From contig CP084166.1 in the NCBI GenBank assembly GCA_021513695.1, positions 1,120,001 through 1,184,000 on the forward strand: DNA of 64,000 nucleotides. Direction: 5' to 3'. Under the pieces are notes generated by a model that searched no databases, was not told the origin of the DNA, and worked only from the letters and a program-made list of their open reading frames with translations. The position numbers and the translations under genes are program-made. This DNA comes from Candidatus Heimdallarchaeum aukensis (GTDB lineage Archaea > Asgardarchaeota > Heimdallarchaeia > Heimdallarchaeales > Heimdallarchaeaceae). This document shows positions 10,861 to 48,934 of this stretch, in pieces. Position 1 is the first letter of the stretch. The number at the start of each line of letters is the position of its first letter.

Positions 10861-11172
10861 TCATTCTGTTATACATTCTGCTTCAGGAATAATTATCCAA
10901 GCAATAACATATGCTATAAATAATGATGTCCCACTAGCAAAAAAAAGCAATATTGCCAGCAATCTAACCAATGAAACATCCATATTAGAATAGATCGCAA
11001 GTCCAGAACACACTCCGCCTAGTACTTTATTGTTAGCACATCTAAATAATTTATTTGATTGAGGGTAATAAGTCGAAGATGGAACGGTTTGCTCTTCTTC
11101 AAATTGGCGCCCACATTTTTGACAAAACAATGACCCCGGGGGGTTATCTGTACCACATTGTTCACAAATCAC
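10861..11172 (-). CDS. Zinc-ribbon + PspC-domain membrane protein
   Basis: N-terminal CxxC...CxxC (CEQCG...CQKCG), then the PspC-domain pattern NKVLGGVCSGLAIYSNMDVSLVRLLAILLFF followed by a TM helix. Confidence 0.75.
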   Translation of the reverse strand: MICEQCGTDNPPGSLFCQKCGRQFEEEQTVPSSTYYPQSNKLFRCANNKVLGGVCSGLAIYSNMDVSLVRLLAILLFFASGTSLFIAYVIAWIIIPEAECITE

Positions 11173-11380
11173 ACAATCACCACTATCTAATGAATTTCTA
11201 GAGATATAAATCTATTCAAATAAAACAGGATAAATTCTTTTCAAACTTAAAATTAAGCATTTTTTAGCTAGTATATGAAATTGAAATTAATTATTTTTGT
11301 AGCAAGTTTTTGCTTATTATTATAAGCCTCTAATTAACAAATAGTAAAATTTTAAATAAAAGTGATAATTCTGTCATTTG

Positions 11381-27496: not shown

Positions 27497-27571
27497 TGGT
27501 AGTCCCCAGGAGATTTGAACTCCTGCCCCCGGATCCAGAGTCCGGGATCCTTGCCACTAGACTAGGGGACT
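27497..27571 (-). tRNA. tRNA-Gln (anticodon CUG), CCA encoded
   Basis: Folded by hand. 7-bp acceptor stem (AGTCCCC/GGGGACT, A1-U72), anticodon stem CCGGA/TCCGG with loop CT-CTG-GA, T arm AGGAG-TTCAAAT-CTCCT, discriminator A plus CCA. Confidence 0.9.
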
Positions 27572-27606
27572 CTAAATTACAAGCGGTAACAAAGGATTGG
27601 AAAAGA

Positions 27607-27681
27607 TGGTAGTCCCCAGGAGATTCGAACTCCTGCCACCGGATTCAAAGTCCGGAATCCTTGCCGCTAGACTAGGGGACT
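27607..27681 (-). tRNA. tRNA-Gln (anticodon UUG), CCA encoded
   Basis: Same cloverleaf as the neighbouring gene, with anticodon loop CT-TTG-AA. 35-nt spacer between the two genes. Confidence 0.9.
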
Positions 27682-27868
27682 TTTTATCTTAACTATTAGT
27701 CTTCTGTCGATTCTTTTTTTTAATTGTGTTTTAAACTTTTCTTTATCTACTATGCTTTATAAACTATTAAATTTTTTTGATTTTTTTCGACTTTTTTCTT
27801 TTTTTCTTTCTCTCATTCTTTTTCCTTATCAAAAAATAAATAAGAGTAAACTTACATTTTATATTATT

Positions 27869-31373: not shown

Positions 31374-32266
31374 CTATTACTAGCAGTTCTCAGATTGACT
31401 ATTTAGTTGACGGTGTTATTGCTTTAAAGACCGAATTAATCAACAATCAGCTAATCAAGAAGATTTCTGTTCCTAAATTAAGAGAAGCCAAGCCTTTAGT
31501 TTATGAAAACCGTTATACTATTACTCAGAAAGGTTTTAGGATTTTCAAATCTGAGAGCGAGCCTTTGTTTACCGTTGATCGTTCTACTGGTATTAAGGTT
31601 TTGGACAATCTTTTAGGTGGAGGTATTGCTCGAGGTTCTGTTGTTTTAGTTGAGATCAATGGTGAGATTAATTATTTTCCTTTCTTCTTGACTCTTCTTT
31701 ACAATTATTTAACTCTAAACCATGGTGTTATCATTCATTCCAATGTTCAGATGAATGTTAATCGTATTTTGGAGGAGTTTGAGCGAGGTCAGTGTGACAT
31801 TTCTGACTACTTACGTGATGGTAATATTGTCTTTTTGGATAAGTACAATCGTTCTGTCACTGCTGTTGAAGCTAAAGAGATTCGTGATATGATTAACTTA
31901 GATGACATGTTAGCTATTACTGTTGAGATGATGCAGGCTTTTGGTTCTGACACTGAAGTTGTTGTTTTTGGTGATCTTACTGATGATGTTAACATTTTGA
32001 ATGAGCGTGATTTCTTAAAATTGTTTGCTCTTCAGTCTTACAACATTAAGGAGCATAATGCTATTTCCTTTTCTTTTATCAATTACAATGCTGTTGACAA
32101 AAAAATTCTCGCTCGTTTACGTACCACCTCTGATGTTATCATTCGTTTATCGCGTGAAAATTATTCTAACTACATTGAATGTTTGAAGAGCACTACTGGT
32201 GCTACATTTCTTGCTAAGAATATTGAATTTAAAAAAAGTTATCCTATGATTGAAATTGTTGAGTGA
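29642..32266 (+). CDS. Chimeric ORF created by the duplication junction: SpeA-like residues 1-577 fused in frame to the C-terminal ~297 aa of the KaiC-like protein
   Basis: aa 1-577 are identical to ORF 32644-34401. From TITSSSQIDYLVDG onward the sequence is identical to the C-terminus of ORF 27752-29266. The junction is at nt 31373/31374. Confidence 0.7.
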   Translation: MTWSLNDSKLIYGVDQNDLYFLDINDQGELLLKLKDQSISFNEIINLVKSQFNSSSLSSVPSFTLRIPQLITEQISKLNTCFQSAIHQYQYSGNFQGIYPIKVNSLSYVLETIKANSPSYAFEAGTVNELDVLLSLLRDDKTRMIMCNGVKDSDYIDKIRGALNDGYSIVISLESCSESTTILDLIDHDLLKLALRIKPYPTVKSHWGSSSGRDSKFGLSIHEFKRIINLLEKRGVKDKVIAIHAHPGSQIIDIDGLRFFVLYLSNRYLELKRLGFTNLNNIDFGGGIPINYDNRLPSDILDNYVKTLVLTLKETITDSDVQPNIWIEAGRFLTAPSSLIIVETIALYSIFPSEESLNDHKAMISSMLEKITHPSSILNLFSHWTELQSPTIDSNVNEILKTEILMKHLKLAIREKMMNFDDEQKFNRIFDLDLDEIFYEIYSPEHILIGNFSVFNTIIDWLLVGQYFPILPIDNLDHQPVSLARLVDKTCDSDGEISIYHPVFNEEKILYTKDGFPLTVKDKKFNLMGFPIGCLPTNFPYYLVIALTGAYQDNIKMHHNLIEPLSSIIIKHENGQWTITSSSQIDYLVDGVIALKTELINNQLIKKISVPKLREAKPLVYENRYTITQKGFRIFKSESEPLFTVDRSTGIKVLDNLLGGGIARGSVVLVEINGEINYFPFFLTLLYNYLTLNHGVIIHSNVQMNVNRILEEFERGQCDISDYLRDGNIVFLDKYNRSVTAVEAKEIRDMINLDDMLAITVEMMQAFGSDTEVVVFGDLTDDVNILNERDFLKLFALQSYNIKEHNAISFSFINYNAVDKKILARLRTTSDVIIRLSRENYSNYIECLKSTTGATFLAKNIEFKKSYPMIEIVE

Positions 32267-34375
32267 GGAAGTATTATGCACAAGATTTTATACTTCAAGA
32301 GCAAAACTTGTAACTGGTGTCCTTTTGTCGAATCGATTTTAAAGAAGATTGTTTCTGAAAAATCTACTTTAGAGTTAGAAGTTATTGATATTGAAGAAAA
32401 TTATGAAATCGCTGAAAAGTATAATATTATCGCTGTTCCTACTATTATTCTTCCTAACTCTACTAAAATTGTTGGTGCTACCGATGAAACTTTTCTACGC
32501 CAGCAGTTATCATTTTTTTTGTGATTGGTGAGAACTGCTTTCTTTTTTTTGTTCTTTTTTTGGTAAATTGTTTTTTTCGTTCTTTAATTCTACTTTCATC
32601 TCTATAAGAAAACTCTTTAAATTCTTTTCTTTTTTGTAAATTAATGACTTGGTCCTTAAATGATTCAAAGCTTATCTATGGTGTTGATCAAAACGATCTT
32701 TATTTTTTAGATATTAATGATCAAGGTGAACTTTTACTTAAGCTTAAGGATCAATCTATTTCTTTTAATGAAATCATCAATCTTGTTAAGTCTCAGTTTA
32801 ACTCTTCTTCTCTCTCTTCTGTTCCTTCATTTACTCTTCGCATTCCTCAATTAATAACTGAACAAATTTCCAAACTTAACACTTGTTTCCAGTCTGCTAT
32901 TCATCAATATCAATATTCTGGCAATTTTCAAGGCATCTATCCTATTAAAGTTAATTCTTTGAGTTATGTTCTTGAAACTATTAAAGCGAACAGTCCTTCC
33001 TATGCTTTTGAAGCTGGAACTGTTAATGAATTAGATGTTTTGCTTTCTCTTCTTCGTGATGATAAAACTCGTATGATAATGTGTAACGGTGTTAAAGATT
33101 CAGACTATATAGATAAGATTAGAGGAGCTCTTAACGATGGTTATTCTATTGTTATTAGTTTGGAGTCATGCTCTGAGTCTACTACCATTCTTGATTTAAT
33201 AGACCATGATTTACTTAAACTTGCTTTGAGAATCAAACCCTATCCCACTGTTAAATCTCATTGGGGAAGTTCTTCTGGTCGCGATTCTAAATTTGGTTTA
33301 TCTATTCATGAATTTAAGCGCATTATTAATTTGTTAGAAAAAAGAGGAGTAAAGGATAAAGTTATTGCTATTCACGCTCATCCTGGTTCTCAGATTATTG
33401 ATATTGATGGTTTAAGGTTCTTTGTTCTGTATCTTTCAAACAGGTATTTAGAACTTAAGCGTCTTGGTTTCACCAACCTTAACAATATAGACTTTGGTGG
33501 AGGTATACCTATTAATTATGATAATAGGTTACCCTCTGACATTTTAGATAATTATGTTAAAACGCTTGTATTAACTCTAAAAGAGACTATCACCGATTCT
33601 GACGTTCAACCTAATATTTGGATTGAAGCAGGAAGGTTTCTTACTGCTCCCTCTTCCTTAATTATTGTTGAAACTATTGCTCTTTACTCTATTTTCCCCT
33701 CTGAAGAGAGTTTAAATGACCATAAGGCTATGATTAGCTCAATGCTTGAAAAAATCACTCATCCTTCTTCGATACTTAATTTATTTTCTCATTGGACTGA
33801 ATTACAATCTCCTACAATCGACTCAAATGTTAACGAAATCTTGAAGACTGAAATTTTGATGAAACACTTAAAATTAGCTATCAGAGAAAAAATGATGAAT
33901 TTTGATGATGAGCAAAAGTTCAACAGGATTTTTGATTTAGATTTGGATGAGATATTCTATGAGATTTATTCCCCTGAACATATCTTAATCGGTAATTTCA
34001 GTGTTTTCAATACTATTATTGATTGGTTACTTGTTGGTCAATATTTTCCTATTCTTCCTATAGACAATCTTGATCATCAACCTGTTTCTTTAGCTAGATT
34101 GGTGGATAAAACATGTGATTCTGATGGTGAGATATCTATTTACCATCCTGTCTTTAATGAAGAAAAGATTTTGTATACCAAGGATGGTTTTCCATTAACA
34201 GTCAAAGACAAGAAATTTAATCTCATGGGCTTTCCTATTGGTTGTTTGCCTACTAATTTCCCATATTATTTAGTTATTGCTTTAACAGGTGCCTACCAAG
34301 ATAACATTAAGATGCATCACAATCTAATTGAGCCATTAAGTAGTATTATTATCAAGCATGAGAATGGGCAGTGGA
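31374..34375. repeat. Tandem direct duplication, unit 2 (3,002 bp)
   Basis: See unit 1. The only differences I found are T5->T8 and T8->T7 runs in the trx-speA spacer (~29547-29560 vs ~32547-32562). Confidence 0.9.
32276..32524 (+). CDS. Small thioredoxin-fold protein, duplicate copy
   Basis: Identical translation to 29276-29524. Confidence 0.75.
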   Translation: MHKILYFKSKTCNWCPFVESILKKIVSEKSTLELEVIDIEENYEIAEKYNIIAVPTIILPNSTKIVGATDETFLRQQLSFFL

Positions 34376-34401
34376 ATGTTTTATATTATAGAGATAAATA
34401 A
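32644..34401 (+). CDS. PLP-dependent arginine/ornithine decarboxylase, SpeA-like (fold-III Orn/DAP/Arg decarboxylase)
   Basis: GIYPIKVNS (PLP-Lys context as in SpeA YPIKVN), IHAHPGSQI, DFGGGIPINY, CDSDGE. The 585-aa length is close to biosynthetic arginine decarboxylases. Confidence 0.75.
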   Translation: MTWSLNDSKLIYGVDQNDLYFLDINDQGELLLKLKDQSISFNEIINLVKSQFNSSSLSSVPSFTLRIPQLITEQISKLNTCFQSAIHQYQYSGNFQGIYPIKVNSLSYVLETIKANSPSYAFEAGTVNELDVLLSLLRDDKTRMIMCNGVKDSDYIDKIRGALNDGYSIVISLESCSESTTILDLIDHDLLKLALRIKPYPTVKSHWGSSSGRDSKFGLSIHEFKRIINLLEKRGVKDKVIAIHAHPGSQIIDIDGLRFFVLYLSNRYLELKRLGFTNLNNIDFGGGIPINYDNRLPSDILDNYVKTLVLTLKETITDSDVQPNIWIEAGRFLTAPSSLIIVETIALYSIFPSEESLNDHKAMISSMLEKITHPSSILNLFSHWTELQSPTIDSNVNEILKTEILMKHLKLAIREKMMNFDDEQKFNRIFDLDLDEIFYEIYSPEHILIGNFSVFNTIIDWLLVGQYFPILPIDNLDHQPVSLARLVDKTCDSDGEISIYHPVFNEEKILYTKDGFPLTVKDKKFNLMGFPIGCLPTNFPYYLVIALTGAYQDNIKMHHNLIEPLSSIIIKHENGQWNVLYYRDK

Positions 34402-37177: not shown

Positions 37178-37813
37178 TTATATTCCTTGATTATGTTTAT
37201 CAAACATACTTGCTTCTGTTAAATTTAGTGCAATTGCTAACTCAGCTACTATCCCATCCAAGAAGGATAAAGCTGCACTTTCAAACATTGTTCCTTCTGG
37301 AGTTAAAGTACTATCTAGTCCTATTTCTCTTCTTGCAAGATCGGTTTTTGTACGCCCAATTAATTTGACTGTTACATCTCCTAATCTTCCTATCACACTT
37401 AAAGGATAACTTGTTATAACAATCACGAATGGATTCCAAATTAAGTATGTTTCCAAAACTGCTTTTACAATTGGAGTTGTTCCTGACCCACTTATAACCA
37501 CTATCGTTTCTCCTTCTTTCACTCTTGGAACAGACCGTGAGTTAGTTATAAATCTTGATTCTGCGCCTAAATGTTCTAAACGGGTTTGAAACATCTGTCC
37601 TACCATTGCAGAACGTCCACTAGCCAAAATGAATATTCTTCTTTCATTTTTGATATCATCAAGCAGTCTATCTCTAACTGCTGTCACATACTCATGATGT
37701 TTCCTCATGTGTTCTACATTTTTCTTTAGATTATCGATCATTAATTCTATCGCTCTAAAAATGATTAGATCTTTATTTTCAGTTAATGACTCTTTATTCT
37801 TGGATTCATCCAT
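37178..37813 (-). CDS. SIS-domain sugar-phosphate isomerase (6-phospho-3-hexuloisomerase-like)
   Basis: ILASGRSAMVGQMFQTRLEHLG ... VVISGSGTTP ... TPEGTMFESAALSFLD follows the PHI/SIS pattern. Confidence 0.7.
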   Translation of the reverse strand: MDESKNKESLTENKDLIIFRAIELMIDNLKKNVEHMRKHHEYVTAVRDRLLDDIKNERRIFILASGRSAMVGQMFQTRLEHLGAESRFITNSRSVPRVKEGETIVVISGSGTTPIVKAVLETYLIWNPFVIVITSYPLSVIGRLGDVTVKLIGRTKTDLARREIGLDSTLTPEGTMFESAALSFLDGIVAELAIALNLTEASMFDKHNQGI

Positions 37814-38076
37814 TATTTTTTCGCTCCTTATTGCGAAATAATGAAATAGCTACAGTTTTTTTTTTACTGTAGAATTTATTTCTAAGCTAAAAGAACTACA
37901 ACTATTTTTAAATTAAATGGTTTAAACTAGAATTTTTATCAAACAAGGTACTGTTTGAAGCCCAAAAATCTCTTTTTTTCAGCAACTATTCCTTGCATAA
38001 TAATGCAAATATCAATACGAAAACTTTTTTTCCTAAAAAAAACAATGGAGAGATATAAGCTATAGGGACGAATCAT

Positions 38077-41004
38077 ATGTTGAAGAAGTTTAACAAAATT
38101 AAAAACTCCAAAAATCGTCCTGCATTTATAGCTGGATTTACTATATTATTTTGGTTAATTATTATTGCATCAAATATTAATCAAGTTTTACATCTTTCTC
38201 AACATTTAACCGATGAAGGCGATTTTTCTTCTTCAGCTAGTTCTGAATCAAGAATAGCTTCCAACATTATTGCAAAATATCAAGAAGATAATTCAACCTT
38301 TTTTCTTATCATTCGAAATAGAAATGGAAGTTCAATTTTAACAGAAGAAATGTACAAAAAAACTGCAGAAATAGAGAAAAATATAACAAGTAACAGGTTG
38401 ATTGGGCCTTATTTATCTTCATCAACACCTTATTCTTCTATTTTTGATACTACAGATAACTTACTGCGAAGTGTATTAAGTTTACAATGGTATTCTACCA
38501 AATTCATTATCTCTTCTTCTGCAATTATGTGGGGAGGAATAGAATATTTCTGTGATAATTGGCTAAAATACTACAATGATTCAGCAAACCTTACAAGTTC
38601 CGTAGAAAATGCAGACTATTTTACAAAACAGTTCTTAGAAGAATATATTTCAGATATTAACAGTTCAATTTTCTTGCCAATAATGAACTCTTTTATATCC
38701 AATTTCTCTGCTTTATTTCTTAAAAACTTGAAATTTGAGGAAAACATTCCGTCGAATGTATCAGAAGCGATATCTTTTTCTTCATCTTTAATTAGTAGTA
38801 ATAAAACATTTTTTTCTCAGATTGCAACTGATTCAAGGTTCTTGGACACTTTAGTTTTTCTTTCAAGTTCTTTTAATATTAATAGATGGAATGAATCTTA
38901 CTATTTGTACCTAAAAACTAGCGAATTCTTGTTTAATTCTACTAAAAAGCCAGATGTTGATTTTATTAATGAAGTATATTCTAATGGTTCTTTAACTGGT
39001 TTTGTTAACGCAAAAAACAAGTACTTGATTCCATTATTACGACTAGAAAAAACAATACCACCTATTTCTGAAGATATGATTATTTCTTTGCTAACCTTGT
39101 ATACTAACTATAATAAGACAAGAGAACCTGATACTATGATTATTTTGTTTAATACTGCTTTATCTTATAAAACAGTAAATGGTTACGATTTATATAAAGA
39201 AATTATTCGTATTCTTCCTCTATTACAAAAAGAAAATCCTTCTTTAGAAATTGAAGTTACAGGTTTTGATCTTTTCATTATTGAGTTAACTGAAGATTCA
39301 GAAAATCAAGCTAAAAAAATGGATATTATTGTTATTGTATTCTTGATTGTGATACTAGTTTTGGCATATCGTTCTCCTATCTTACCACTCATTCAGATTC
39401 TTGCTATTGGAATTGCCATGGTTGTTTCTCGCTCAATATTCATTTTAATAAGTAAAACTGTTTATCCTCTCTCTAGTACAAGTTTAATACTTATGAGCAT
39501 TAATTTATTAGGGGCCACAACAGATTACAGCGTTTTTCTTATTGGAGATTATTTGTTAATGTATGAAAAAATCAAAGATAAGAAAAAATCAATTAAAGAA
39601 ACTCTAGAGAGAACAGCGAAGAGTATAGTTATTTCTTCAATTTCTCTTGCTATCGGCTTTGGTTCATTAATTTTTTCTCGCATTCCATCAATTAGAGGAA
39701 TGGGAATAGGAGGAGCTATTGGCTTTCTTTCAGGAATGGTAGTTTCCTTGACAGTTGTTCCTTCTTGTTTATTTCTCATAAAACAGGAATTTCTAACTAA
39801 GTGGAAATTTAAGAAAAAAATTTTACCTAAGTTTGACTTATTCGGTAAATCTCAGAAACTTGTTCTAAAACACCCTACTCGAGTGTTCTTTGCTTTCACA
39901 ATTATTTCTGCTTTATGCTTTGGTTTATTTTTTATAACTCCATTAGATTATTCGCAATTGAGCACAGCTCCTGATAGATATATTTCAAAACAAGGGTTCA
40001 ATTTAATTTCAGAGCATTTAGGTGAAGATAAACTTAATCAAATTGTTATTTTATATAAAACACCTGAAAATGAGTCTTTCATGTTTAAGAACAATTCTCT
40101 TAATATTGATGCTATAAAAAAGGTAGAAAAAACAATAGCAGAACTGATGAAAAATACAAACTTTACATATATTTACGGAGTTAGTCACCCTTTAGGTAAA
40201 CCCTTTTCAGAAAGTTTAGAAAATACTTCTTATTTCCTTTACCAAGAAATTCTTTTATTAACTACTAAATTTATTCTACCTGATAGTCGCTATGCTTTAG
40301 TTACTTGTGGTTCTCCTTTCAAAGAAGAGGATATAAAGCTAGATCAACAAGTTTCTATAATTCGAGATACAATAAAAGAATTGATTGATACCCCACAATT
40401 CGAAGATTGGGAGATTTTAGTAACAGGATTTCCAGTTACTTTAGTAGATGGAAAAAGAATAATTCAAGAAGACTTTTTACTTATTTCCTTAATGATTCTA
40501 GTTAGCTCTTTCATCTTGTTAGTCTTCTTCATGAAAGATGTCTTTATGGCTTTTAGGATATTATTAACTATAGTCATTAGTCTTGGATTGAATCTTGGTT
40601 TATTTGCTATTTTTTCTCACATTTTCTTTGGAGGAAGTATATTATTTATGGTGCCTTTGTTCCTTTTTTCAGTTTTAATATCATTAGGGTTAGATTTTGA
40701 TATTCTATTTCTGGGTATATTTAATAGGCTACTTAAGAAGACCGGAGAATTAGAATCAAGTATTTTTAACTCTGTCAAACAAACGATGTCAAACATTTCT
40801 ATTGCTGGAATAATTATGATGGCAACTTACTTCTCGTTAATATTCACGAACTCAATCCAAATGATACAAATTGGTTTAGGATTAAGCATAGGCATTTTTA
40901 TTGATGTTTTTATTTCTCGATTATTTATTGTTCCCTCTGCGGTAATTCTGACTTCAAAGTTTGAACAAAAATTAAAGTTCTGGAGGAAAAAAGATGAAAA
41001 CTAA
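38077..41004 (+). CDS. MMPL/RND-superfamily membrane transporter (975 aa)
   Basis: Two blocks of about 6 TM helices, each preceded by a large extracytoplasmic domain. A segment such as TTDYSVFLIGDYLLMYEK resembles the MMPL DYxxF...R..E region. Confidence 0.7.
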   Translation: MLKKFNKIKNSKNRPAFIAGFTILFWLIIIASNINQVLHLSQHLTDEGDFSSSASSESRIASNIIAKYQEDNSTFFLIIRNRNGSSILTEEMYKKTAEIEKNITSNRLIGPYLSSSTPYSSIFDTTDNLLRSVLSLQWYSTKFIISSSAIMWGGIEYFCDNWLKYYNDSANLTSSVENADYFTKQFLEEYISDINSSIFLPIMNSFISNFSALFLKNLKFEENIPSNVSEAISFSSSLISSNKTFFSQIATDSRFLDTLVFLSSSFNINRWNESYYLYLKTSEFLFNSTKKPDVDFINEVYSNGSLTGFVNAKNKYLIPLLRLEKTIPPISEDMIISLLTLYTNYNKTREPDTMIILFNTALSYKTVNGYDLYKEIIRILPLLQKENPSLEIEVTGFDLFIIELTEDSENQAKKMDIIVIVFLIVILVLAYRSPILPLIQILAIGIAMVVSRSIFILISKTVYPLSSTSLILMSINLLGATTDYSVFLIGDYLLMYEKIKDKKKSIKETLERTAKSIVISSISLAIGFGSLIFSRIPSIRGMGIGGAIGFLSGMVVSLTVVPSCLFLIKQEFLTKWKFKKKILPKFDLFGKSQKLVLKHPTRVFFAFTIISALCFGLFFITPLDYSQLSTAPDRYISKQGFNLISEHLGEDKLNQIVILYKTPENESFMFKNNSLNIDAIKKVEKTIAELMKNTNFTYIYGVSHPLGKPFSESLENTSYFLYQEILLLTTKFILPDSRYALVTCGSPFKEEDIKLDQQVSIIRDTIKELIDTPQFEDWEILVTGFPVTLVDGKRIIQEDFLLISLMILVSSFILLVFFMKDVFMAFRILLTIVISLGLNLGLFAIFSHIFFGGSILFMVPLFLFSVLISLGLDFDILFLGIFNRLLKKTGELESSIFNSVKQTMSNISIAGIIMMATYFSLIFTNSIQMIQIGLGLSIGIFIDVFISRLFIVPSAVILTSKFEQKLKFWRKKDEN

Positions 41005-42601
41005 GATTATTCACTTATTTCTGATACTTTTATTTGTAACAACTTGTATTCCTGTTATCACTAAAGCTTCTAGTGAAATTGATTTCAGAGAGTTAGAGTT
41101 TTCATCTAAAGGCTATGATATAACTTATGAAATTCTAGAAGGAAAGAATATAGGAACTTTGTTCAGTGATATTGGTTTCAACCTATCAGGCTCATTGTCT
41201 GGTTCAGAATTTCATGTTTTGCTTAAGAATCGAAGAAATGAGTTAAGAGACATTTATTCGATGGAATCTAATTCAGTTTTTCAACAAAACACTTCAATTT
41301 TTATTTTCGATAATTACATACAGTTAAAAAACAATTTAGAATTTAGTTCTGAATTATCAAAACTTCTCTCTCAGATAAAAATTGGAAAAAATTATCTAGA
41401 ACCGACAGAAGATAAAGAAATTTCCGCTATTCTTCCCTATAACTCTACAATCCCAATACCTAGAATTTTTACGCAAGTTACGTTTCCAAATTTCAATTCC
41501 ATAATCAGTAGTAATAACTTTTTTGACTTTCTTCCAATTATTTTAGGAAACGAATATGAAAGATATGAGGCAGAGTTTTCTTTTCTTCAACTAACTGGAA
41601 ATTTCACAGTAAATGTTTATAACAAATTACTAGACTATTTTACAGTCTCAATAAGAAAAAGTGATTCCAGTTTAATCATTAAAAGCTCTTGGAATAAAAA
41701 CAATGGTCTTCTCCAATCCCTGTCTATACAGTTCAAACATGGAGATATAACTAATCTTTTCAGTATAGAGTACAAAAATTTTAAAGAAATTCAAAGCCCT
41801 GAAGGTAGCGATATTATCTCTTTTTTTATTACGAATAGCACAGCCGATTTAGACTTTTATAATGGACCAAATACTAAGAGAAGCCAACTAGAAAACGCTA
41901 CAAGTTTAATTAATGAAATCAATAATACAGAAGCTTTTCAATATCTAATTCAAAATAATGGAGGATTATCACTTTCTTGGACTTGGCAGGTGTTAGATCC
42001 CTTAACAGAAGAATATGTTGAACCCTCAATACTTCAAGAGACAACATTTCTTTCTCAAATGCAACCTGTTATTATTCCAGATTGGGATATGAATAAAGGG
42101 ATTATTTTGTTTGTAGAAAGTATAGGTAAAAGTTTGTATGAACAAGTTCAAGATTTTAGAATCAAGATTGGTAACAGAACAGAATATTCATTATCAATAA
42201 ACAAATTTAATATTCAATTACAAGAGTTTGAGCAATTCTATTACTTATTAGTTGATTTTGACATAAGTTATCAGAGAAAGGAAATCAGCTTTTTAGCAAG
42301 TAGGGTTCAGATTCAAAAATGGAATTTATCATACTATTTCTGGTTAAGTTATTCTAAATTGGGGATATTAAGCGCCTTTTCTATATCTTGCCAAGAAATT
42401 AACCATTTTTATTTTGAACCTTTTGACATAGAAAGAGAAACACATTATAAGTGGAATTACAAAATAGAAAGTATACAAAAAGCTGACATTATTCCTACCT
42501 TTACTACAATTACAACGAAAACTCCAATCTCAAAAATTGTCTTTGTTACTTTATTTGTACTTACAGTTATTAGAAAAATAAAAAAGAAAGAGTTGAAGTA
42601 A
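40994..42601 (+). CDS. Secreted/anchored hypothetical protein (535 aa), translationally coupled to the MMPL gene
   Basis: Start overlaps the MMPL stop by 11 nt. N-terminal signal-like helix, N/S/F-rich beta-looking body, C-terminal TM helix plus KIKKKELK. Confidence 0.6.
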   Translation: MKTKIIHLFLILLFVTTCIPVITKASSEIDFRELEFSSKGYDITYEILEGKNIGTLFSDIGFNLSGSLSGSEFHVLLKNRRNELRDIYSMESNSVFQQNTSIFIFDNYIQLKNNLEFSSELSKLLSQIKIGKNYLEPTEDKEISAILPYNSTIPIPRIFTQVTFPNFNSIISSNNFFDFLPIILGNEYERYEAEFSFLQLTGNFTVNVYNKLLDYFTVSIRKSDSSLIIKSSWNKNNGLLQSLSIQFKHGDITNLFSIEYKNFKEIQSPEGSDIISFFITNSTADLDFYNGPNTKRSQLENATSLINEINNTEAFQYLIQNNGGLSLSWTWQVLDPLTEEYVEPSILQETTFLSQMQPVIIPDWDMNKGIILFVESIGKSLYEQVQDFRIKIGNRTEYSLSINKFNIQLQEFEQFYYLLVDFDISYQRKEISFLASRVQIQKWNLSYYFWLSYSKLGILSAFSISCQEINHFYFEPFDIERETHYKWNYKIESIQKADIIPTFTTITTKTPISKIVFVTLFVLTVIRKIKKKELK

Positions 42602-44359
42602 TTGCTGAAACATAAAAATAAGTTTATTTTGGATACAAACTTTATTATTAGTGCTTTTGAGAAAAACCCTTCCACAATTAACATTTTTATAAAGAAGATA
42701 AGAAGTCTCAATATTCAATTATTAATTACGAATCACATTATCAAAGAAGTTAGATGGTATTTACGTAGAAGAATAATAAATGAAATTACCATCAAAGAAG
42801 TCTCCACTAAAGAGATTAGGAAATTACTTTCTGAAATAGAAAAAAAGGGTATTTCACCACCACATTTTCCTGACTTATCAAACATAGTTTTAGCTAGAAA
42901 ATTGGAAGGTACAGTTGTAACAAGTGATCTTCAACTAGTAAAAACTTGCGAAGAATTGGGAGTACCAGTTCATATGTCATCTTCATTTGTGTTTTTTTTG
43001 AAAGAAAAGGTAAATAATTTTGAAGATAAGAAATTCTTCAACGAACTCTATGATATTATTCTTTCTGATGAGATTATGCACAGTGTGGAGCAGAGTGAGA
43101 CATATAATCCTGTCTATAGAATAAAAGAAATTCAATTACATGCGATTAAAGTTTTACAAAAACTACCTAAAATATCTCCTAATAAAACACAAGAAATGTT
43201 CTTTTTAAAAGAAGAGAATGAACTGTTGGACTTAATTAATGAAATTGAATTTGAGATGCCAAATTATATAACCCAAATTCAAGATGGTAAGGACTTAGAA
43301 ACTCTAGAGGTAGAACTGAAAGATATTTACAATCAAATTAATGACATTGTTTGGCAATTACAACTTCAGCTCAAAACGAGAAAGAGTCTTATTTTATCTG
43401 CATCTATAAGAATTAAAGCTAGAATACTTTTTGCTCTGAGTATTGTAGAATTTACTTTATTAAACTTTGAAAAATTAGAAAATACTTTGAATATTCTTTC
43501 AGAGATAGTATCCAGTTCACCAGACATGGTTTCAGATCTGTTTATGGATTTACAATTTCTCAGGATGGTTTTTCTTTTTGTCACCCAAAATTATAACAGA
43601 CTAACAGGATACTTTTCAGACAATTTTCTTTTATTGTGTGAAATTGAAAAAAGAAAAGATTTGACAAAGCTCACTAGAACAATAATTTTCGCTTGTACAA
43701 TTTTAGAAAGCAGGATAATAGATAAAAATGCTTCTTTAGAAGGTAAAAAAGAAATCTCTCTTTTATTCCAATTAGGCTATATTTTATTACAAAAAAGAAA
43801 TATTGAGAATGCTCTCCTTATCTTATTACAAACTCATTATTTAGCTCTACAAATTAAGGATGAAGAATTGATCCGAAATTCTCTAGAACTCATGATTGTT
43901 ATTCATTACATCTCCAATGAAAATATAAGTACTGAAATAGAACAAGGAATATTAGAATTAAAAAAAATTAATCCGTTTAATGTTCCTGTTTTTTCTATAA
44001 AAGAAGAATTAGATCTAAATATTTTTACTAATACAGAGTTTAAACAAATTGATGATTTTCCAAGCTTATTAAAAGAGTGGTTCTATATCTACGATTATTT
44101 GATAAAAGAAGAAGGACAAACAAAAACTGCAATATTTGTTATAAGTCCTTATTTTTCTCCTAAAACAGTTTTTATTACAACTCAACGTTTGCCAATGTAT
44201 GAACTTAGACCAGGAAGACAAATAAAAATAATAAAAGGAATGCTAAAAATTCGTAAATGCAGTTATAATTACGAGAAAAGAGAAGTTGATTTAGTTATTG
44301 AAATTAAAGAACCATTATTCTCTTTGAGAGATCCATGGGGAATGAAGATTATTAGGTAA
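42602..44359 (+). CDS. PIN-domain protein fused to a ~450-aa helical domain of unknown function (TTG start)
   Basis: N-terminal FILDTNFIISAF ... IIKEV ... DLSNIVLA ... VVTSDLQLVKTCEELGVPV gives the acidic-residue spacing of a PIN/VapC-like nuclease. Starts directly after the upstream stop. Confidence 0.65.
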   Translation: MLKHKNKFILDTNFIISAFEKNPSTINIFIKKIRSLNIQLLITNHIIKEVRWYLRRRIINEITIKEVSTKEIRKLLSEIEKKGISPPHFPDLSNIVLARKLEGTVVTSDLQLVKTCEELGVPVHMSSSFVFFLKEKVNNFEDKKFFNELYDIILSDEIMHSVEQSETYNPVYRIKEIQLHAIKVLQKLPKISPNKTQEMFFLKEENELLDLINEIEFEMPNYITQIQDGKDLETLEVELKDIYNQINDIVWQLQLQLKTRKSLILSASIRIKARILFALSIVEFTLLNFEKLENTLNILSEIVSSSPDMVSDLFMDLQFLRMVFLFVTQNYNRLTGYFSDNFLLLCEIEKRKDLTKLTRTIIFACTILESRIIDKNASLEGKKEISLLFQLGYILLQKRNIENALLILLQTHYLALQIKDEELIRNSLELMIVIHYISNENISTEIEQGILELKKINPFNVPVFSIKEELDLNIFTNTEFKQIDDFPSLLKEWFYIYDYLIKEEGQTKTAIFVISPYFSPKTVFITTQRLPMYELRPGRQIKIIKGMLKIRKCSYNYEKREVDLVIEIKEPLFSLRDPWGMKIIR

Positions 44360-45296
44360 GCTCTTCTTTCCACTCTTCTATAATGCCTATAATTTCTTCA
44401 ACGTCAATAGGTTTTCTTCTCATTTTTTCTATTAATTGACTCATTTTATGTCTCATAAAAGGTGATAGGGCGCCTGCTTCCATTAAAGCATCTCTTGCTT
44501 TATCAAAAGCTTTTATTATTTGTTCTTTATCTCTTGATACTGTTACGATAGTCTTAAGATTATCAAAAACTTTCTTGGGTTCAACACTCTCCCAATCTTC
44601 TTCAATCTTTGTCGCTTGAACTAATGAGGAAGTAACTAGAGCGTATCCTTCACCTATTTGTTTAATTAAACCCTTCTTTTCAAGGTTAAACATAAGCTGA
44701 TCTATTTTTCTTTTTTCTACTCCAAGTTCATTTGCCAGTGTTTCTGCGTTTTTTGGCAGATTTGAATTAGATAGAACTCCAAGAATTCTTTGAGATACAG
44801 TACCATTCTTCTTACAATATTGAACAAGAGAGGTTAAGGCATTAACAAATTTGTCATCAGTAGGTTTCGAATAGTAAGTTACTAATTCTTCTAGTAATCT
44901 GTCAATTTCTTCTGTCTCTATATGTACAGGAGTAAAACTTTCTTCTTCTTTTGGTTTAGTAAAAGTTTCTTTTTTCAATCTATCAATTTCTATTTCTAAA
45001 TCCCTTATTTTTAATTTAAGTTCATTTTCTCTTTCATTTCGAGCTTGAGCATCTTGTTCTTTCCAATATCGCTCTTCTTCCATTCTCTTGGAATATCTTT
45101 CTATTTCTTCATCTTTCTGCTGAATAACTTGTTTAAGTTTAGCTATCTCTGCATTTAAATTTTCTATCATATTTGATTGATGGGAGATGCGTTGTTGTAA
45201 TTGAGACATGTATTGTTCTTGAGCTTGCATTTGCAATTTCATGCGTCTAACATCATTATCACCTTCACCGTTTTCCCCATATGGAGTTCTTACCAC
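44352..45296 (-). CDS. Coiled-coil + winged-helix protein (314 aa)
   Basis: An N-terminal Q/E/K-rich heptad region (aa ~20-115) is followed by the wHTH-like LPKNAETLANELGVEKRKIDQLMFNLEKKGLIKQIGEGYALV. Confidence 0.55.
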   Translation of the reverse strand: MVRTPYGENGEGDNDVRRMKLQMQAQEQYMSQLQQRISHQSNMIENLNAEIAKLKQVIQQKDEEIERYSKRMEEERYWKEQDAQARNERENELKLKIRDLEIEIDRLKKETFTKPKEEESFTPVHIETEEIDRLLEELVTYYSKPTDDKFVNALTSLVQYCKKNGTVSQRILGVLSNSNLPKNAETLANELGVEKRKIDQLMFNLEKKGLIKQIGEGYALVTSSLVQATKIEEDWESVEPKKVFDNLKTIVTVSRDKEQIIKAFDKARDALMEAGALSPFMRHKMSQLIEKMRRKPIDVEEIIGIIEEWKEELT

Positions 45297-45364: not shown

Positions 45365-45970
45365 TTAACCCAATATTTCTAACAATATGATTTCAAATAT
45401 TTTCTTACATCTTGAAACATTTGAATAGGGCCATTTCTTGTCTTCAGTATTAAGAACATAGTCTGCTAAAGCCATTACTGAGCCTACCCCATAACCTAGT
45501 TCTTTTTTATTTCGTGCTAGAAAATTATCAAAATTCCTTAAATATTCATCTTCCTTCGCTTTAGAACTATTTTCTCCTTCTTTTCTATCAGGATTATCTA
45601 AACGTCCAAATCTGGTTCTCAAAGAAGCATGGAATGCAATAAGGAAGACATTTGTTTCTCCAAAATGTTTTTTCAAAACTTCAATTTCAGAAACTGCTCG
45701 GATCCCAGAGACAAAAACTGCTTTAATTTCTTCATCTAAATTGTCAATCTTCTCAATCAATCGTTCGGTAAAATAACTATCAGATATCTTCTTACAATCA
45801 TCTGTAACCTTCTTAATATTTTCTGGGATAAAATCATAACCTCGTTTTTTCACTTCTTCCAAGACTACTGTTCCAGTTTCAAACAGAGGAATATTGTACT
45901 TTTCTCCAAAAATTTTAGCATAAGTTGTTTTTCCTGCTAATGGAAGAGATGTGAGAACTATAACTTTCAT
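45365..45970 (-). CDS. UPF0200-family archaeal nucleotide kinase-like P-loop protein (dephospho-CoA kinase-like)
   Basis: MKVIVLTSLPLAGKTTYAK (P-loop), ..VSGIRAVSEIEVLKKHFGE..IAFHAS..RFGRL.., ..ELGYGVGSVMALADYVLNTE follows the UPF0200 pattern as I recall it. Start moved to Met14 of the tracked ORF. Confidence 0.65.
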   Translation of the reverse strand: MKVIVLTSLPLAGKTTYAKIFGEKYNIPLFETGTVVLEEVKKRGYDFIPENIKKVTDDCKKISDSYFTERLIEKIDNLDEEIKAVFVSGIRAVSEIEVLKKHFGETNVFLIAFHASLRTRFGRLDNPDRKEGENSSKAKEDEYLRNFDNFLARNKKELGYGVGSVMALADYVLNTEDKKWPYSNVSRCKKIFEIILLEILG

Positions 45971-46199
45971 ACTCTCAATTTCATGTGGTATAAAATAAAT
46001 TTTTCTCAATAAAAATAAAATAAACGGTCAGAGAGCTCCAGTGGTTCATAGTAAGCCATAGCTTAACTCCCCCGGTCTATGAGGCTCTGACCTAAGTTAA
46101 CTTCTTCATTTTTATTTAAAAATTAAGTGATTAAATATAGAAAAAAATCACCTAATACTTTGTCAAAAAAGAAATAAATCTAAATCTTTTCATATCCTT

Positions 46200-46460
46200 A
46201 TGGAAAACCAAAAAGGCAAAATTCCTATATTTCAAGTTGATGCTTTCACTGATAAAGCCTTTCAAGGCAATCCTGCAGCTGTTTGTATCTTAGAAGAAAA
46301 ATACTCTTTTTCTGATTCTTTACTACAAAAAATAGCTCAAGAAATGAATCTTTCTGAAACAGCTTTTATTTACGTGAAAGATCTAGATCAAATTACTAAC
46401 CAAAGTGAGTTCAGGTTACGTTGGTTTACCCCAAATAAAGAAGTCAAAATGTGTGGACAT
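46200..46460 (+). pseudogene. PhzF-family isomerase gene, 5' fragment (codons 1-87), truncated by IS insertion
   Basis: IFQVDAFTDKAFQGNPAAVC...LSETAFI...RLRWFTPNKEVKMCGH is the PhzF N-terminal pattern. After ..CGH (46460) the tracked ORF continues into unrelated IS sequence. Confidence 0.85.
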
Positions 46461-48328
46461 GATTTACTTTTTTACGTAAAGTTTTTCACACTCTGTCTTG
46501 CAAGAGAGAAAACTAAAGGAAGTTTAATCTCTTGAACTCAACCAAGCCATACAATGCCATGAAGGGGTTGAGACAGACATCATACACGAATCGTGGGAAT
46601 CATAAAGAAGAATAGAAAGTTTTTCTTTCTTTTCTTCACTCCACGAGAGACAAAAAAGAAAGAAAGAAAGAAAGAATTACTCCTATAATAGAGAAGGAGT
46701 TACTTTCCTTTTTGTCTACTGGGACTGCAACCAATGGCTGAGCCCTCGGCAAACAGTGAAATGGGAAGAACTGAACCTTTGACCAGTGAGGTAATCAGTG
46801 ATAGTTGTTCCTCGAGGACGAAAAAGAGCACCAAGGAACTTACGAGCGATATTCATTGCCCCTGTGAGGTCAGAGTGGAAAGTGTAGTTACAGGAAGAAC
46901 AATGAACTAAACCTCTAACGGGACGGATAACTTTTCTCCCACAACGAGCACAGTAAGAAGATGTCCCTCTTTCTCCTATTGTTAATATTCGGTGAGGTTC
47001 AAAACCTCGAAGTATCAATGCTCGACGAAGAAGAGCAAGAACAAGAGAAAAGTTCCACTGATGAAGTTTCCTGCGAAACTTACGAGTACTTTTACCTTTT
47101 CCTTTCTCCTCGCGAACATGTTTAGGGTAACCTACAACGACGAAAAGGTCATACATTCGCGCATAGGTCTCTATCGTCTGCACAACCTCACTTATAAATT
47201 GGTGAATATATGCTCGTTTAACGTTTCTATATCTTCTTCGGAGGAGACTAAGAAAACGATAAACTTGATGTTTTTTACCCGACTGGTCATTTAAAGCTGC
47301 TTTCCTCTGAAGACGGGAAAGTTTGAGTTTATATCTATGATTGACTCTATTCCACTGTTTGGTATACCAAAATTTTATCTCTTTACTTGTTAATTTCTTT
47401 TTAGGGGTTAGTAACACTCCTGTAGCAGGAATGTTTATACCTAGATCTATTCCCAGCACAGCTGGGGGAAGAGAAGAAGAACTTTTTTCTTTAGTAGGAT
47501 AAAAAGAAGGAGGAGGAAGAACTCTTAGTTGGAAATACACCCACCATTCAAGTGTAGAACGTTTATATCTTAGTTCTAAACTTTTTATTCGTCCTTTCTT
47601 TAATTCCTTCTGGTGGAAAGTGCTCATCTCTAAAGGTAACCATAGTTTCTGATGATAAGGTGTGTTTCTTTTCCATGTATCTAACGAGTCTCTTATCCCC
47701 ACCCACCAACGAGTGAGAGTGTTATTCTTCTCTTTAGGTAGATGGACGAGAACGAACCTCTTTGCATTAATTAGTTGTCTTCTTGCTCTCTTTATGGGTG
47801 GACGAGTATTATTAGGTCTATACCCTTGTTCATATAACTGTACGGCTATATCTCTACACTCTTGAAATTCGTTGTGGGAACAATAAGGGAACATTTTCTT
47901 CAGATCGTGAGGGACATTCTTTCTTCTCTCTTCTTCTTTAACTTTGGAAGTAGTTAGCGTCAGTTCATCTAGTTTTCCTCTATGCACTCTTATTTTCCCT
48001 TTTTTAGTTTTAGTACATATTTTTCTTCTGTTATGATGTATAATTCTCACATATTTTTCTATTATCCTCGTATCTCTTCCCGTTATTCTCCTTAACCTTT
48101 CCTTCTTCCTCGTCGTCAATACCTCCTTCTTTATTCTCACTTTCAAGGTTTTGACGACGTCCTCCACCATCTTTCTCTTTTCTCCTTCTTTCCTCTTTTT
48201 TTGTTTCTTCTTCTCTTTTTTTTATTATACTTTTTTCCCTATAAAAACCCCTCTCCTTCCTCTCCTCTCTTCTCTTTTTTTTTTATTTTGCTGTCAACAA
48301 CTGTAAACTACGTAAAAAATAGACGCAT
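46461..48328 (-). mobile_element. TnpB-only IS element (~1.87 kb, second family) inserted in the PhzF-family gene
   Basis: Deleting 46461-48328 joins ..MCGH to ATLASAAVLFNEF.. in frame. TTTTTTACGTA occurs near both ends in inverted orientation (46468-46478 / 48309-48319). Visibly more G+C-rich than the flanks. Boundaries are ambiguous by 3 nt (CAT at both junctions). Confidence 0.8.
46716..48170 (-). CDS. tnpB: TnpB-like RuvC/zinc-finger endonuclease (484 aa), Arg/Lys-rich
   Basis: AVLGIDLGINIPA (RuvC Asp), IGERGTSSYCARCG (Glu + CxxC), HCSSCNYTFHSDLTGAMNIARK (CxxC + Asp). No similarity at nt level to the copy A/B family. Confidence 0.8.
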   Translation of the reverse strand: MVEDVVKTLKVRIKKEVLTTRKKERLRRITGRDTRIIEKYVRIIHHNRRKICTKTKKGKIRVHRGKLDELTLTTSKVKEEERRKNVPHDLKKMFPYCSHNEFQECRDIAVQLYEQGYRPNNTRPPIKRARRQLINAKRFVLVHLPKEKNNTLTRWWVGIRDSLDTWKRNTPYHQKLWLPLEMSTFHQKELKKGRIKSLELRYKRSTLEWWVYFQLRVLPPPSFYPTKEKSSSSLPPAVLGIDLGINIPATGVLLTPKKKLTSKEIKFWYTKQWNRVNHRYKLKLSRLQRKAALNDQSGKKHQVYRFLSLLRRRYRNVKRAYIHQFISEVVQTIETYARMYDLFVVVGYPKHVREEKGKGKSTRKFRRKLHQWNFSLVLALLRRALILRGFEPHRILTIGERGTSSYCARCGRKVIRPVRGLVHCSSCNYTFHSDLTGAMNIARKFLGALFRPRGTTITDYLTGQRFSSSHFTVCRGLSHWLQSQ

Positions 48329-48934
48329 GCAACCCTTGCTTCAGCAGCAGTCTTATTTAATGAGTTTAAGATTACAACTAACATCATTGAATTTGAAACT
48401 TTAAGTGGTTCTTTACTTGTATCAAAGAAAGATAATGATTTTTATTTGGATTTCCCCATTTCTAGTTTGTTCAAAGATGAAGAGAATTATCAAGAACTCA
48501 TTTCTGCTTTAGGAATCGAAGAAGCATTAAACATCGAATATTGTGAAACTTTAGACTATCTTATAGTTGAAGTGGAAAACGATCAAATTGTAGAAGATCT
48601 AGCCCCTAATTTTCAAAGAATGTTAGACAGTCATTTACCTAAGAATGTTGGATTAGTAATTGTTACTTCTAAATCTACTTCTAACAAAGATTTTGACTTT
48701 GTTTCTCGTTGCTTTGCTCCTTGGTTTGCTATCAATGAAGACCCTGTAACTGGTTCTGCTCATACTATTTTGTATCCTTACTGGTCAAAAAGGCTAATGA
48801 AAAAAGAACTTATTGCTTACCAATGTTCTCCACGAGGAGGAATTCTTCATCTTCAACCTTCAACTTCTCCTGATAGACTTTATATAGTAGGAAAAGCAAC
48901 TGTTGTTTTACATGGTCATCTATTTCTTGATTAA
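48329..48934 (+). pseudogene. PhzF-family isomerase gene, 3' fragment (~201 codons)
   Basis: The frame of tracked ORF 48446-48934 is open back to 48329 (ATLASAAVLFNEFKITTNIIEFETLSGSLLVSKKDNDFYLDFP...). The C-terminal part has FVSRCFAPWFAINEDPVTGSAH, typical of PhzF. Confidence 0.85.

Follow-up and report, generated by a model that had tools for sequence, protein, structure and literature searches.

The described nucleases closest to the protein reported here are the HARP/PIN_5 enzymes (PF08745; Aq880, Hhal2243 and T. celer HARP), minimal RNA-free RNase P proteins. These have ~190 aa and a spike-helix domain, assemble into dodecamers and process pre-tRNA 5' ends. Their catalytic aspartates, as numbered in Aq880, are D7, D138, D142 and D161 (PMC8266387). 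The VapC toxins and archaeal stand-alone PIN proteins (PF01850; 1y82, VapC15 and PH VapC4) have the canonical D-E-D-D tetrad, and in a VapBC pair the small toxin is preceded by an overlapping antitoxin gene. In eukaryotes, PIN-like nucleases are joined to helical repeats in PRORP (PPR plus NYN) and in SMG5/6-EST1 (14-3-3/TPR-like plus PIN). On the side of export, the transporter gene of the mycobacterial MmpL4/5-MmpS4/5 systems overlaps that of an extracytoplasmic partner anchored in the membrane, and we know of no MmpL operon that carries a PIN gene. Literature searches on Asgard MMPL proteins, on Asgard PIN with TPR and on KaiC-like proteins with PIN found no description of the family or of the operon dealt with below, and the 2017 classification of PIN domains makes no mention of TPR or MMPL.

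Gene junctions, transporter and surface protein

The window (the whole stretch of DNA analysed, 64,000 nucleotides, from an Asgard archaeon of the Heimdallarchaeaceae) contains at 38077-44359 three ORFs on the same strand, for a transporter (MMPL), an anchored secreted protein (SECR) and a PIN fusion protein (PINF1), with exactly the coordinates given by an earlier sequence-only reading (Table 1). SECR starts inside the 3' end of MMPL, the two overlapping by 11 nt, and PINF1 starts at the base after the SECR TAA with 0 nt between them. An identical 11-nt MMPL/SECR overlap is present in four related loci (L001, L002, L004 and L006), the operon junctions across relatives overlap by 0-11 nt, and most PINF starts are preceded by Shine-Dalgarno-like motifs, which at the relatives' junctions fall for PINF1 within the tail codons of SECR. 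The tight coupling of the three genes noticed in that reading is thus kept in relatives, and the genes are very likely co-transcribed. Readthrough of the stop codon between SECR and PINF1, which in the window are in the same frame and separated by a single TAA, was considered but rejected, as the two genes overlap in different frames in relatives. The intergenic region upstream of MMPL is presumed to carry the promoter of the operon and has an ATATAA sequence ~22-27 nt before the MMPL ATG. No Rfam family matched in this region, and Rfam and tRNA scans of the operon region found nothing; a scan for sigma-70 promoters and terminators did no better than on shuffled sequence and is uninformative in an archaeal genome.

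Table 1. Positions in the window of the operon, its flanking genes and the domains of PINF1.
Feature	Position	Strand	Details
SIS-domain protein, HxlB/PHI-like	37178..37813	-	Pfam SIS E=5e-9; TIGR03127 100.9 bits, below the cutoff of 160
Divergent intergenic region, presumed MMPL operon promoter region	37814..38076	.	263 nt, AT-rich
MMPL transporter gene	38077..41004	+	975 aa, ATG start
GGAGG Shine-Dalgarno of SECR	40982..40986	+	within MMPL 3' end, 7 nt before the ATG at 40994
SECR, anchored secreted protein gene	40994..42601	+	535 aa, ATG start
PINF1, PIN fusion gene	42602..44359	+	585 aa, TTG start
PINF1 residues 1-136, PIN nuclease domain	42602..43009	+	tetrad D11/E49/D91/D109; invariant Arg-rich helix RWYLRRR (51-57)
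PINF1 residues 140-186, conserved helical linker	43019..43159	+	family signature LSDEIxxSV ... DPVxRIKxIQ
PINF1 residues 203-456, TPR-like alpha-solenoid	43208..43969	+	AF2 model
PINF1 residues 477-576, C-terminal beta domain	44030..44329	+	pattern PGRQIK...G...VDL...RG.FG conserved
Coiled-coil + winged-HTH protein	44352..45296	-	314 aa; TrmB HTH E=4e-4, coiled-coil-type matches
AAA_17 P-loop kinase-like protein	45365..46009	-	Pfam AAA_17 E=5e-10; downstream edge of block

The assignment of the first protein to the MMPL family of the RND superfamily is borne out by its match to PF03176 (223 bits against a cutoff of 20.5, E=6e-66, in two stretches) and by an RND-type hydropathy profile with 12 TM helices, in which TM1 is followed by a loop of ~370 aa, TM2-6, a second loop of ~170 aa and TM7-12; these two large extracytoplasmic loops hold 17 sequons. 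The scores for actII (TIGR00833, 215 against a trusted cutoff of 875), HAE3 (TIGR00921, 129 against 352) and HpnN (75 against 752) all fall below the NCBIfam subfamily cutoffs, so the transporter is classed as MMPL sensu lato without a subfamily. Its best solved relatives are MmpL4 and MmpL5 (E=1e-34 to 1e-26, the former value being to MmpL4), followed by MmpL3 (~1e-9) and Dispatched. SECR has a hydrophobic N-terminal signal/anchor (residues 1-27), a C-terminal TM segment (508-529) and nine N-x-S/T sequons, in line with its earlier description as anchored and secreted, and is classed as a type-I anchored, beta-rich and probably N-glycosylated surface protein; no family is known to which it belongs, and it occurs in Heimdallarchaeaceae only. 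Both MMPL and SECR end in short Lys/Arg-rich cytoplasmic tails. The pair resembles MmpL4/5-MmpS4/5 in that the two genes overlap and one of them encodes an extracytoplasmic partner anchored in the membrane, but SECR is 535 aa long, lies downstream of the transporter and appears not to be homologous to MmpS, and the archaeal envelope differs. MMPL, as a proton-driven RND transporter, would form with SECR an envelope exporter, in which by analogy with the MmpS-type partners of MmpL4/5 SECR could plausibly have an accessory or substrate-receiving role; the pair is a candidate lipid/glycolipid exporter with a lineage-specific surface partner.

Domain architecture of PINF1

The PIN domain of PINF1 has a three-layer alpha/beta/alpha fold with a parallel beta sheet, which places it in the PIN superfamily (VapC structural group). 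The four motifs from which the sequence-only reading had recognized it (ILDTN, IIKEV, DLSN and TSDLQL) contain D11, E49, D91 and D109, and its impression that the nuclease N-terminus is complete was confirmed on alignment, as none of the four acidic residues varies among 30 orthologues (A1), among 21 sequences with identities as low as 19% (A4) or among 15 N-terminal domains taken Asgard-wide (A6), and they remain unchanged down to Loki- and Odin-type relatives. As N13 is also invariant family-wide, retained catalysis is argued for, and PINF1, in which hydropathy revealed no credible TM segment and no membrane-association feature, is predicted to be a soluble cytoplasmic Mg2+/Mn2+-dependent endoribonuclease.

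Among solved structures the best profile matches were to HARP/PIN_5 proteins (7e8j, E=4e-5; 7f3e, E=5e-4), both halves of whose PIN domain align to PINF1; a basic helix after the second acidic residue is common to the two, and D7, D142 and D161 of Aq880 align with D11, D91 and D109. D138 of Aq880, however, aligns with the invariant P87 of PINF1, so that the HARP set of catalytic aspartates is incomplete; the HARP spike-helix insert has a much shorter counterpart (~40 aa with short helices between E49 and D91), and PINF1 is three times longer than HARP, with TPR and beta domains. The Pfam scores are correspondingly borderline, with a marginal pass for PF01850 (24.1 bits against a gathering threshold of 23.6) and a value just below the cutoff for PIN_5 (26.7 against 27, over profile positions 157-203 only, the last 47), and TIGR03875 is well below its cutoff (25.9 against 95.3). 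Judged by these matches, PINF1 is closest among solved PIN proteins to the HARP/PIN_5 RNA-free RNase P enzymes and the archaeal VapC-like PINs, with which it has the D-E-D-D tetrad in common, and is a member of neither group. Compared with PRORP and SMG5/6-EST1 the domain order is reversed, the PIN domain of PINF1 being N-terminal, and similarity to these proteins was not found outside the PIN core; the likeness is one of analogy only.

The layout of the remainder was taken from an AF2 model (mean pLDDT 83). It had been described as about 450 aa of helical sequence, which holds for the linker and the TPR-like solenoid but not for residues 477-576, which form a beta domain. The alignment reaching 19% identity still shows no variation at the linker residues E157, S161, P170, I174 and I177, and the linker helices are partly modelled at low confidence (pLDDT 42-52 over residues 161-200). 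The beta domain (~100 aa) has six strands, mostly at pLDDT 82-92, and G538 and G546 within it are invariant across the PIN-TPR-beta family; its profile gave no significant match to PDB sequences or Pfam, and a faint resemblance to the C-terminal region of MalK (E=0.08) was judged to be chance.

Gene order in relatives and the wider family

The order SIS, MMPL-SECR-PINF1, coiled-coil-wHTH, AAA_17 was found in 29 species genomes and five metagenome loci, the trio itself is kept in every Heimdallarchaeaceae locus reaching far enough, and all SECR loci of sufficient extent carry PINF1. The neighbourhood, conservation of which in other genomes had been left as a check by the sequence-only reading, is therefore conserved in relatives. 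The SIS gene, at the upstream edge of the block, is divergent from MMPL in all orthologous loci reaching that far; the coiled-coil-wHTH gene, convergent to PINF1 and overlapping its 3' end by 8 nt, is likewise present in all of them, L007 included; and the AAA_17 protein is 62-95% identical among them, its gene also adjoining that of a sister-clade protein (P0044 in L009). As the wider block from SIS through AAA_17 to GrpE, the last encoded in a grpE-dnaK-dnaJ group a few kb from the operon, is equally syntenic, the order of the trio is no more conserved than the background synteny. The only exception is L007, a metagenome contig of 4 kb and possibly a chimera, where the PINF1 orthologue has kept its coiled-coil-wHTH neighbour and has no MMPL or SECR upstream, the order breaking exactly between SECR and PINF1.

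A search of 1.84e9 representatives gave 59 matches to the PINF1 family, with source names in Loki-, Hel-, Odin- and Promethearchaeota and Heimdall, and the PIN-TPR-beta family, found in Asgard-type contigs only, appears from these matches to be restricted to Asgard archaea. Heimdallarchaeaceae have two stable paralogues, the second of which (PINF2) occurs in every genome in the order epimerase, PINF2, KaiC-like ATPase, HMG-CoA reductase; it is never near MMPL and adjoins the KaiC-like ATPase in 15 Heimdall loci. Distant members also lie beside a KaiC-like ATPase (L053, L056), and for those in Odin-, Loki/Promethearchaeota- and Hel-type contigs the adjoining genes are unrelated and no MMPL is nearby; the KaiC-like ATPase is thus the recurrent genomic partner of the family, where any exists. 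In a rough NJ tree the MMPL-linked proteins group in a single clade, within which the MMPL-less P0028 also falls.

In the family defined by this locus, which is uncharacterised and apparently Asgard-restricted, a HARP/VapC-like PIN domain is joined to a TPR-like solenoid and to a beta domain of a new kind. Provided that its nuclease is active, PINF1 would be a candidate for a role in RNA processing or decay in this lineage, and to our knowledge almost nothing is known of RNA turnover in the Heimdall lineage. A phylogenetic placement of the Heimdallarchaeaceae as the clade closest to eukaryotes has been published (PMC8813620). The nuclease-plus-solenoid design of PINF1 parallels that of the eukaryotic PRORP and SMG6.

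Relation of PINF1 to the exporter

We consider it probable that PINF1 is a cytoplasmic RNase of the PIN-TPR family that is co-expressed with a lipid-type exporter in Heimdallarchaeaceae only, and is not an intrinsic component of that exporter. Its PIN domain, with a D-E-D-D site and an Arg-rich helix, would carry out metal-dependent RNA cleavage, the solenoid would probably serve as a protein-docking surface, and nucleic-acid or ligand binding may be the role of the small beta domain. Of the two paralogues in the family Heimdallarchaeaceae, PINF1 would have ended up behind MMPL and SECR as the last gene of the operon and so become linked to the exporter through co-transcription and translational coupling, presumably with no mechanistic tie to export. 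As RNases of this Asgard-wide family are usually located elsewhere, the link to export looks like lineage-specific gene placement; the association can be explained by such placement in a syntenic block, and new biology is not required. The proposal of a regulatory or toxin-like role for the PIN protein as part of the exporter was not upheld, in view of the equally syntenic block, the absence of MMPL and SECR in L007, the contexts of PINF2 and the distant members, and the lack of an antitoxin, a PADLOC match or a toxin-antitoxin-like size.

Against the placement reading are the presence of PINF1 in all SECR loci of sufficient extent, the chance that L007 is chimeric, and the fact that the SECR/PINF1 junction (0-11 nt overlap) has been kept while identity falls to 39% for PINF1 and 30% for SECR, as would also be expected of a real functional module. 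In such a module PINF1 would be recruited through its TPR to the cytoplasmic face of MMPL-SECR, or would cleave the operon mRNA, tuning export or linking envelope or lipid-export status to RNA cleavage. Translational coupling in 34/34 loci where SECR reaches the junction, retention of the MMPL/SECR/PINF1 order while the genes upstream of SIS vary between genomes, and the Lys/Arg-rich tails of MMPL and SECR (short peptide tails are typical ligands of TPR domains) are consistent with this; we nevertheless regard it as unlikely, because conservation is equally strong for the SIS, coiled-coil-wHTH, AAA_17 and GrpE genes, the L007 orthologue lacks upstream MMPL and SECR, paralogues and distant members never adjoin MMPL, and PINF1 has no feature for membrane association.

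Alternatively, and with distinctly less to be expected of it, PINF1 could be mainly a TPR scaffold, co-chaperone-like or signalling, acting with KaiC-like or AAA_17 ATPases, its PIN domain binding RNA or a ligand and not acting as a nuclease. The paralogues consistently beside a KaiC-like ATPase, and the AAA_17 gene and grpE-dnaK-dnaJ within a few kb, would fit such an adaptor, but the family-wide invariance of the four acidic residues and N13 argues against it, as does the C-terminus of the local DnaK, which is acidic but lacks the EEVD motif.

More speculative still, and improbable, is a membrane-proximal RNase docked by its TPR to the MMPL and SECR tails, made at fixed stoichiometry by translational coupling, whose cleavage of specific RNAs would depend on lipid- or envelope-export status. 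If true, a HARP-like nuclease would here connect envelope biogenesis with RNA turnover in a manner specific to Asgard archaea, and on a wider view the PIN-TPR-beta family would amount to an RNA-processing system regulated by (KaiC-like) ATPases and unique to Asgard archaea.

That PINF1 hitch-hiked into the operon as a toxin of the VapC type or as an effector against viruses is very hard to credit, for its PIN fold is close to that of VapC toxins but the gene upstream encodes a 535-aa membrane glycoprotein and not a VapB antitoxin, no small DNA-binding ORF lies beside PINF1, a PADLOC search gave no match, no mobile-element signature was seen around the trio, and PINF1 is not a mobile or multicopy protein of ~130 aa but one of 585 aa, with ~450 extra residues in additional domains, which in 29 species genomes is single-copy, inherited vertically and stable in its place on the chromosome.

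Gene layout and conservation of the exporter block

Three consecutive forward-strand ORFs in the AT-rich window (GC about 28–37%) encode a transporter (MMPL), an anchored secreted protein (SECR) and a PIN-domain fusion protein (PINF1), and ORF calling placed all three on exactly the coordinates and strand given by a sequence-only reading. The coupling described there was likewise found: SECR starts 11 nt inside MMPL and PINF1 starts at the base after the SECR TAA.

Features of the operon, its borders and the PINF1 protein (AF2, domain limits taken from the AF2 model)
Feature	Position	Strand	Description
Gene 1, MMPL	38077–41004	+	ORF, 975 aa, ATG start
Gene 2, SECR	40994–42601	+	ORF, 535 aa, ATG start
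Gene 3, PINF1	42602–44359	+	ORF, 585 aa, TTG start
SIS-domain gene	37178–37813	−	Divergent, upstream border of block
ccHTH gene	44352–45296	−	Convergent with PINF1, 8-nt overlap, downstream border
AAA_17 P-loop gene	45365–46009	−	Downstream border
PIN domain	PINF1 1–136		AF2
Helical linker	PINF1 140–186		AF2; family signature LSDEI..SV / DPV.RIK.IQ
Disordered stretch	PINF1 188–198		AF2
12-helix solenoid, TPR-like	PINF1 203–456		AF2
Six-stranded beta domain	PINF1 477–576		AF2

A GGAGG motif (40982–40986) precedes the SECR start, the MMPL/SECR overlap is 11 nt in every locus compared, the SECR/PINF1 junction is an overlap of 0–11 nt wherever gene calls are clear, and most loci carry SD-like GGAG or GAGG motifs within the last codons of SECR. 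Conserved overlaps and SD-like motifs of this kind make it very likely that the trio is co-transcribed and translationally coupled. Rfam and tRNA scans found no Rfam family or tRNA in the operon region. SECR and PINF1 share a reading frame in the window, where a single TAA separates them from each other at the PINF1 TTG (42599–42604), and the same arrangement occurs in the closest relative (L010). Programmed readthrough from SECR into PINF1 is unlikely, as the two genes overlap in different frames in other orthologues.

The genome scan took one genome per GTDB species and gave 46 loci; conservation of neighbours was tested by tblastn with the neighbour proteins of the window. Gene order proved to be conserved in 29 orthologous loci, wherever the contig reaches, as SIS(−) / MMPL–SECR–PINF1(+) / ccHTH(−)–AAA_17(−), and the gene calls of other assemblies are consistent with this order. 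Identity across these 29 loci is 39–90% for PINF1 and 26–82% for SECR (30–82% for full-length matches), and a GrpE gene lies 0.5–2 kb beyond the conserved block. Order is identical in the closest genome, that of Ca. Heimdallarchaeum endolithica PR6 (CP084167.1; PMC8813620), with about 82–96% protein identity from SIS to AAA_17 and 82–98% over the whole aligned stretch. A SECR-seeded metagenome scan added 7 loci, PINF1 being present in all five that reach the junction. The homologues of PINF1 and SECR recovered in protein searches all came from Heimdallarchaeaceae or Heimdallarchaeota MAGs.

At 46200–48934, an inserted 484-aa ORF (46716–48170, −) interrupts a PhzF-family gene, leaving an N-terminal part (46200–46535, Pfam positions 1–76) and a C-terminal part (48446–48934, Pfam positions 115–281). 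The ORF has a Cas12f1-like TNB domain and resembles a TnpB/IS200-605-type element; PhzF is intact (281 aa) in a relative (L002).

Predicted properties of the three proteins

Residues 8–136 of PINF1 give weak PIN-clan Pfam matches (PIN, 24.1 bits, cutoff 23.6; PIN_5, 26.7 bits, cutoff 27). The acidic tetrad is nevertheless complete: D11, E49, D91 and D109, which fall inside the four motifs picked out in the sequence-only reading, are invariant in 30 aligned orthologues, in 21 full-length relatives with identity down to 19%, and in 15 N-terminal domains including Loki-, Hel- and Promethearchaeota-type members. The best solved relatives of the family PIN-domain profile are HARPs, a type of RNA-free RNase P (7e8j, 4e-5; 7f3e, 5e-4), followed by Nob1 (1e-3). 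Catalysis by the HARP Aq880 depends on D7, D138, D142 and D161 (PMC8266387), and in the profile alignment D7, D142 and D161 fall on PINF1 D11, D91 and D109, but D138 falls on the invariant P87, and the spike-helix insert is cut down to about 40 residues in PINF1. The domain is accordingly PIN_5/VapC-like with a canonical D-E-D-D site, but is not a HARP.

The AF2 model of PINF1 (pLDDT 83, pTM 0.62) agrees in part with the earlier description of a C-terminal region of about 450 helical residues: the linker and solenoid are helical, but the protein ends in a beta domain, for which nothing significant was found among PDB sequences or Pfam. The protein also has a basic helix (RWYLRRR). PINF1 is predicted to be cytoplasmic, as it contains few sequons and lacks any credible TM segment. 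The 2017 PIN-superfamily classification, in which PIN_5 was still given as ‘function unknown’, makes no mention of TPR or MMPL, and a literature search found no description of the PINF1 family or of an MMPL–SECR–PINF1 operon. PINF1 is best classed as a predicted VapC/PIN_5-group nuclease whose domain combination had not been described before; it would act as a metal-dependent endoribonuclease.

Gene 1 matches Pfam MMPL with 223 bits (E = 6e-66) and scores under the trusted cutoffs for three subfamily models, actII, HAE3 and HpnN. Among solved structures it comes closest to MmpL4 and MmpL5, which export siderophores in mycobacteria (E = 1e-34 to 1e-26); MmpL3 (about 1e-9) comes next, and Dispatched gives a faint match. 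Hydropathy shows 12 TM helices in the RND arrangement, with one loop of about 370 aa between TM1 and TM2 and another of about 170 aa between TM6 and TM7; 17 of the 18 N-x-S/T sequons lie within these two loops. SECR has no match in Pfam or NCBIfam, and a search of 5.8e9 proteins returned only 9 relatives, all from Heimdallarchaeaceae. With 9 sequons, a hydrophobic N-terminal signal/anchor (1–27) and a C-terminal TM helix (508–529) that leads into a Lys-rich tail, it is a predicted type-I surface glycoprotein. By analogy with MmpL4/5–MmpS4/5, MMPL–SECR may export an envelope lipid or glycolipid-type substrate.

Neighbourhoods of the PINF1 family

The conserved order does not by itself establish that the trio is a regulatory or toxin-like module tied to export. 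Conservation extends beyond the trio: SIS, ccHTH, AAA_17 and GrpE are kept just as well in the orthologous loci (tblastn), so the trio order does not rise above the synteny expected as background in a single archaeal family. Upstream of SIS, and only there, synteny is lost; the next gene encodes an A24 peptidase (window), a Ras-like GTPase (L001, L004) or BacA (L002). One locus (L007) has a PINF1 ortholog with 42% identity to that of the window and the same convergent ccHTH gene, with neither MMPL nor SECR upstream; there a divergent gene for a zinc-ribbon membrane protein is found across a spacer of about 70 nt. As this ortholog lies inside the MMPL-linked clade in an NJ tree, the loss of adjacency looks secondary. 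AAA_17 also flanks a sister-clade protein (P0044, L009); upstream of this protein, stop codons close all three frames in the first 20 nt of its contig, which means that no long gene extends up to its start. The ccHTH protein (314 aa; coiled coil at the N-terminus, winged HTH resembling TrmB/CasR) is encoded beside PINF1 even in L007, the one locus without MMPL and SECR.

A second paralog, PINF2 (24–31% identity to PINF1), is present in each genome including PR6, and all 15 Heimdall loci (within L039–L055; for example L049 of PR6, 6979–12353) have the order epimerase–PINF2–KaiC-like ATPase–HMG-CoA reductase. A KaiC-like ATPase, itself diverged to 28–30% identity, is also the neighbour of more distant members (L053, L056), so the KaiC adjacency spans a deeper divergence than the MMPL adjacency, and its recurrence in these far more divergent contigs suggests that the PIN–TPR/KaiC pairing is a conserved two-gene system. 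No MMPL gene was found near the other distant members, in L057 (Odinarchaeia), L058, L059 (Promethearchaeota) and L060 (Helarchaeota), whose neighbours are unrelated. The whole family comprises 59 matches among 1.84e9 cluster representatives; members whose source is named belong to Asgard lineages, and its distribution is apparently Asgard-restricted.

The combination of exporter and nuclease is most simply explained as a lineage-specific gene placement in Heimdallarchaeaceae, and an export-coupled role for PINF1 is improbable. Invariance of the catalytic residues speaks against a scaffold-only role. Toxin or defence activity is likewise disfavoured: the architecture of PINF1 argues against it, the position of the gene is stable, no antitoxin was found and PINF1 has no PADLOC match. 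The position of PINF1 in the operon would give co-expression with the exporter in the Heimdallarchaeaceae lineage, and its solenoid would dock a protein partner, the KaiC-like ATPase in the paralogous system.

Small GTPases and gelsolin-domain proteins are typical ‘eukaryotic signature’ neighbours in Asgard archaea. Arf/Ras/Rag-family small GTPases are encoded near the PIN–TPR gene in L057–L060, and a gelsolin-domain protein in L057, with no consistent linkage among these four loci. Elsewhere in the window, a cluster (27752–34401) holds a KaiC-like ATPase (27752–29266), an unusual 874-aa protein in which an Orn/Arg-decarboxylase-like domain is fused to a KaiC-like one (29642–32266) and a second Orn/Arg-decarboxylase-like protein of 585 aa (32644–34401). 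A tandem tRNA-Gln pair (anticodons CTG and TTG, 35 nt between) lies at 27497–27681 (−).
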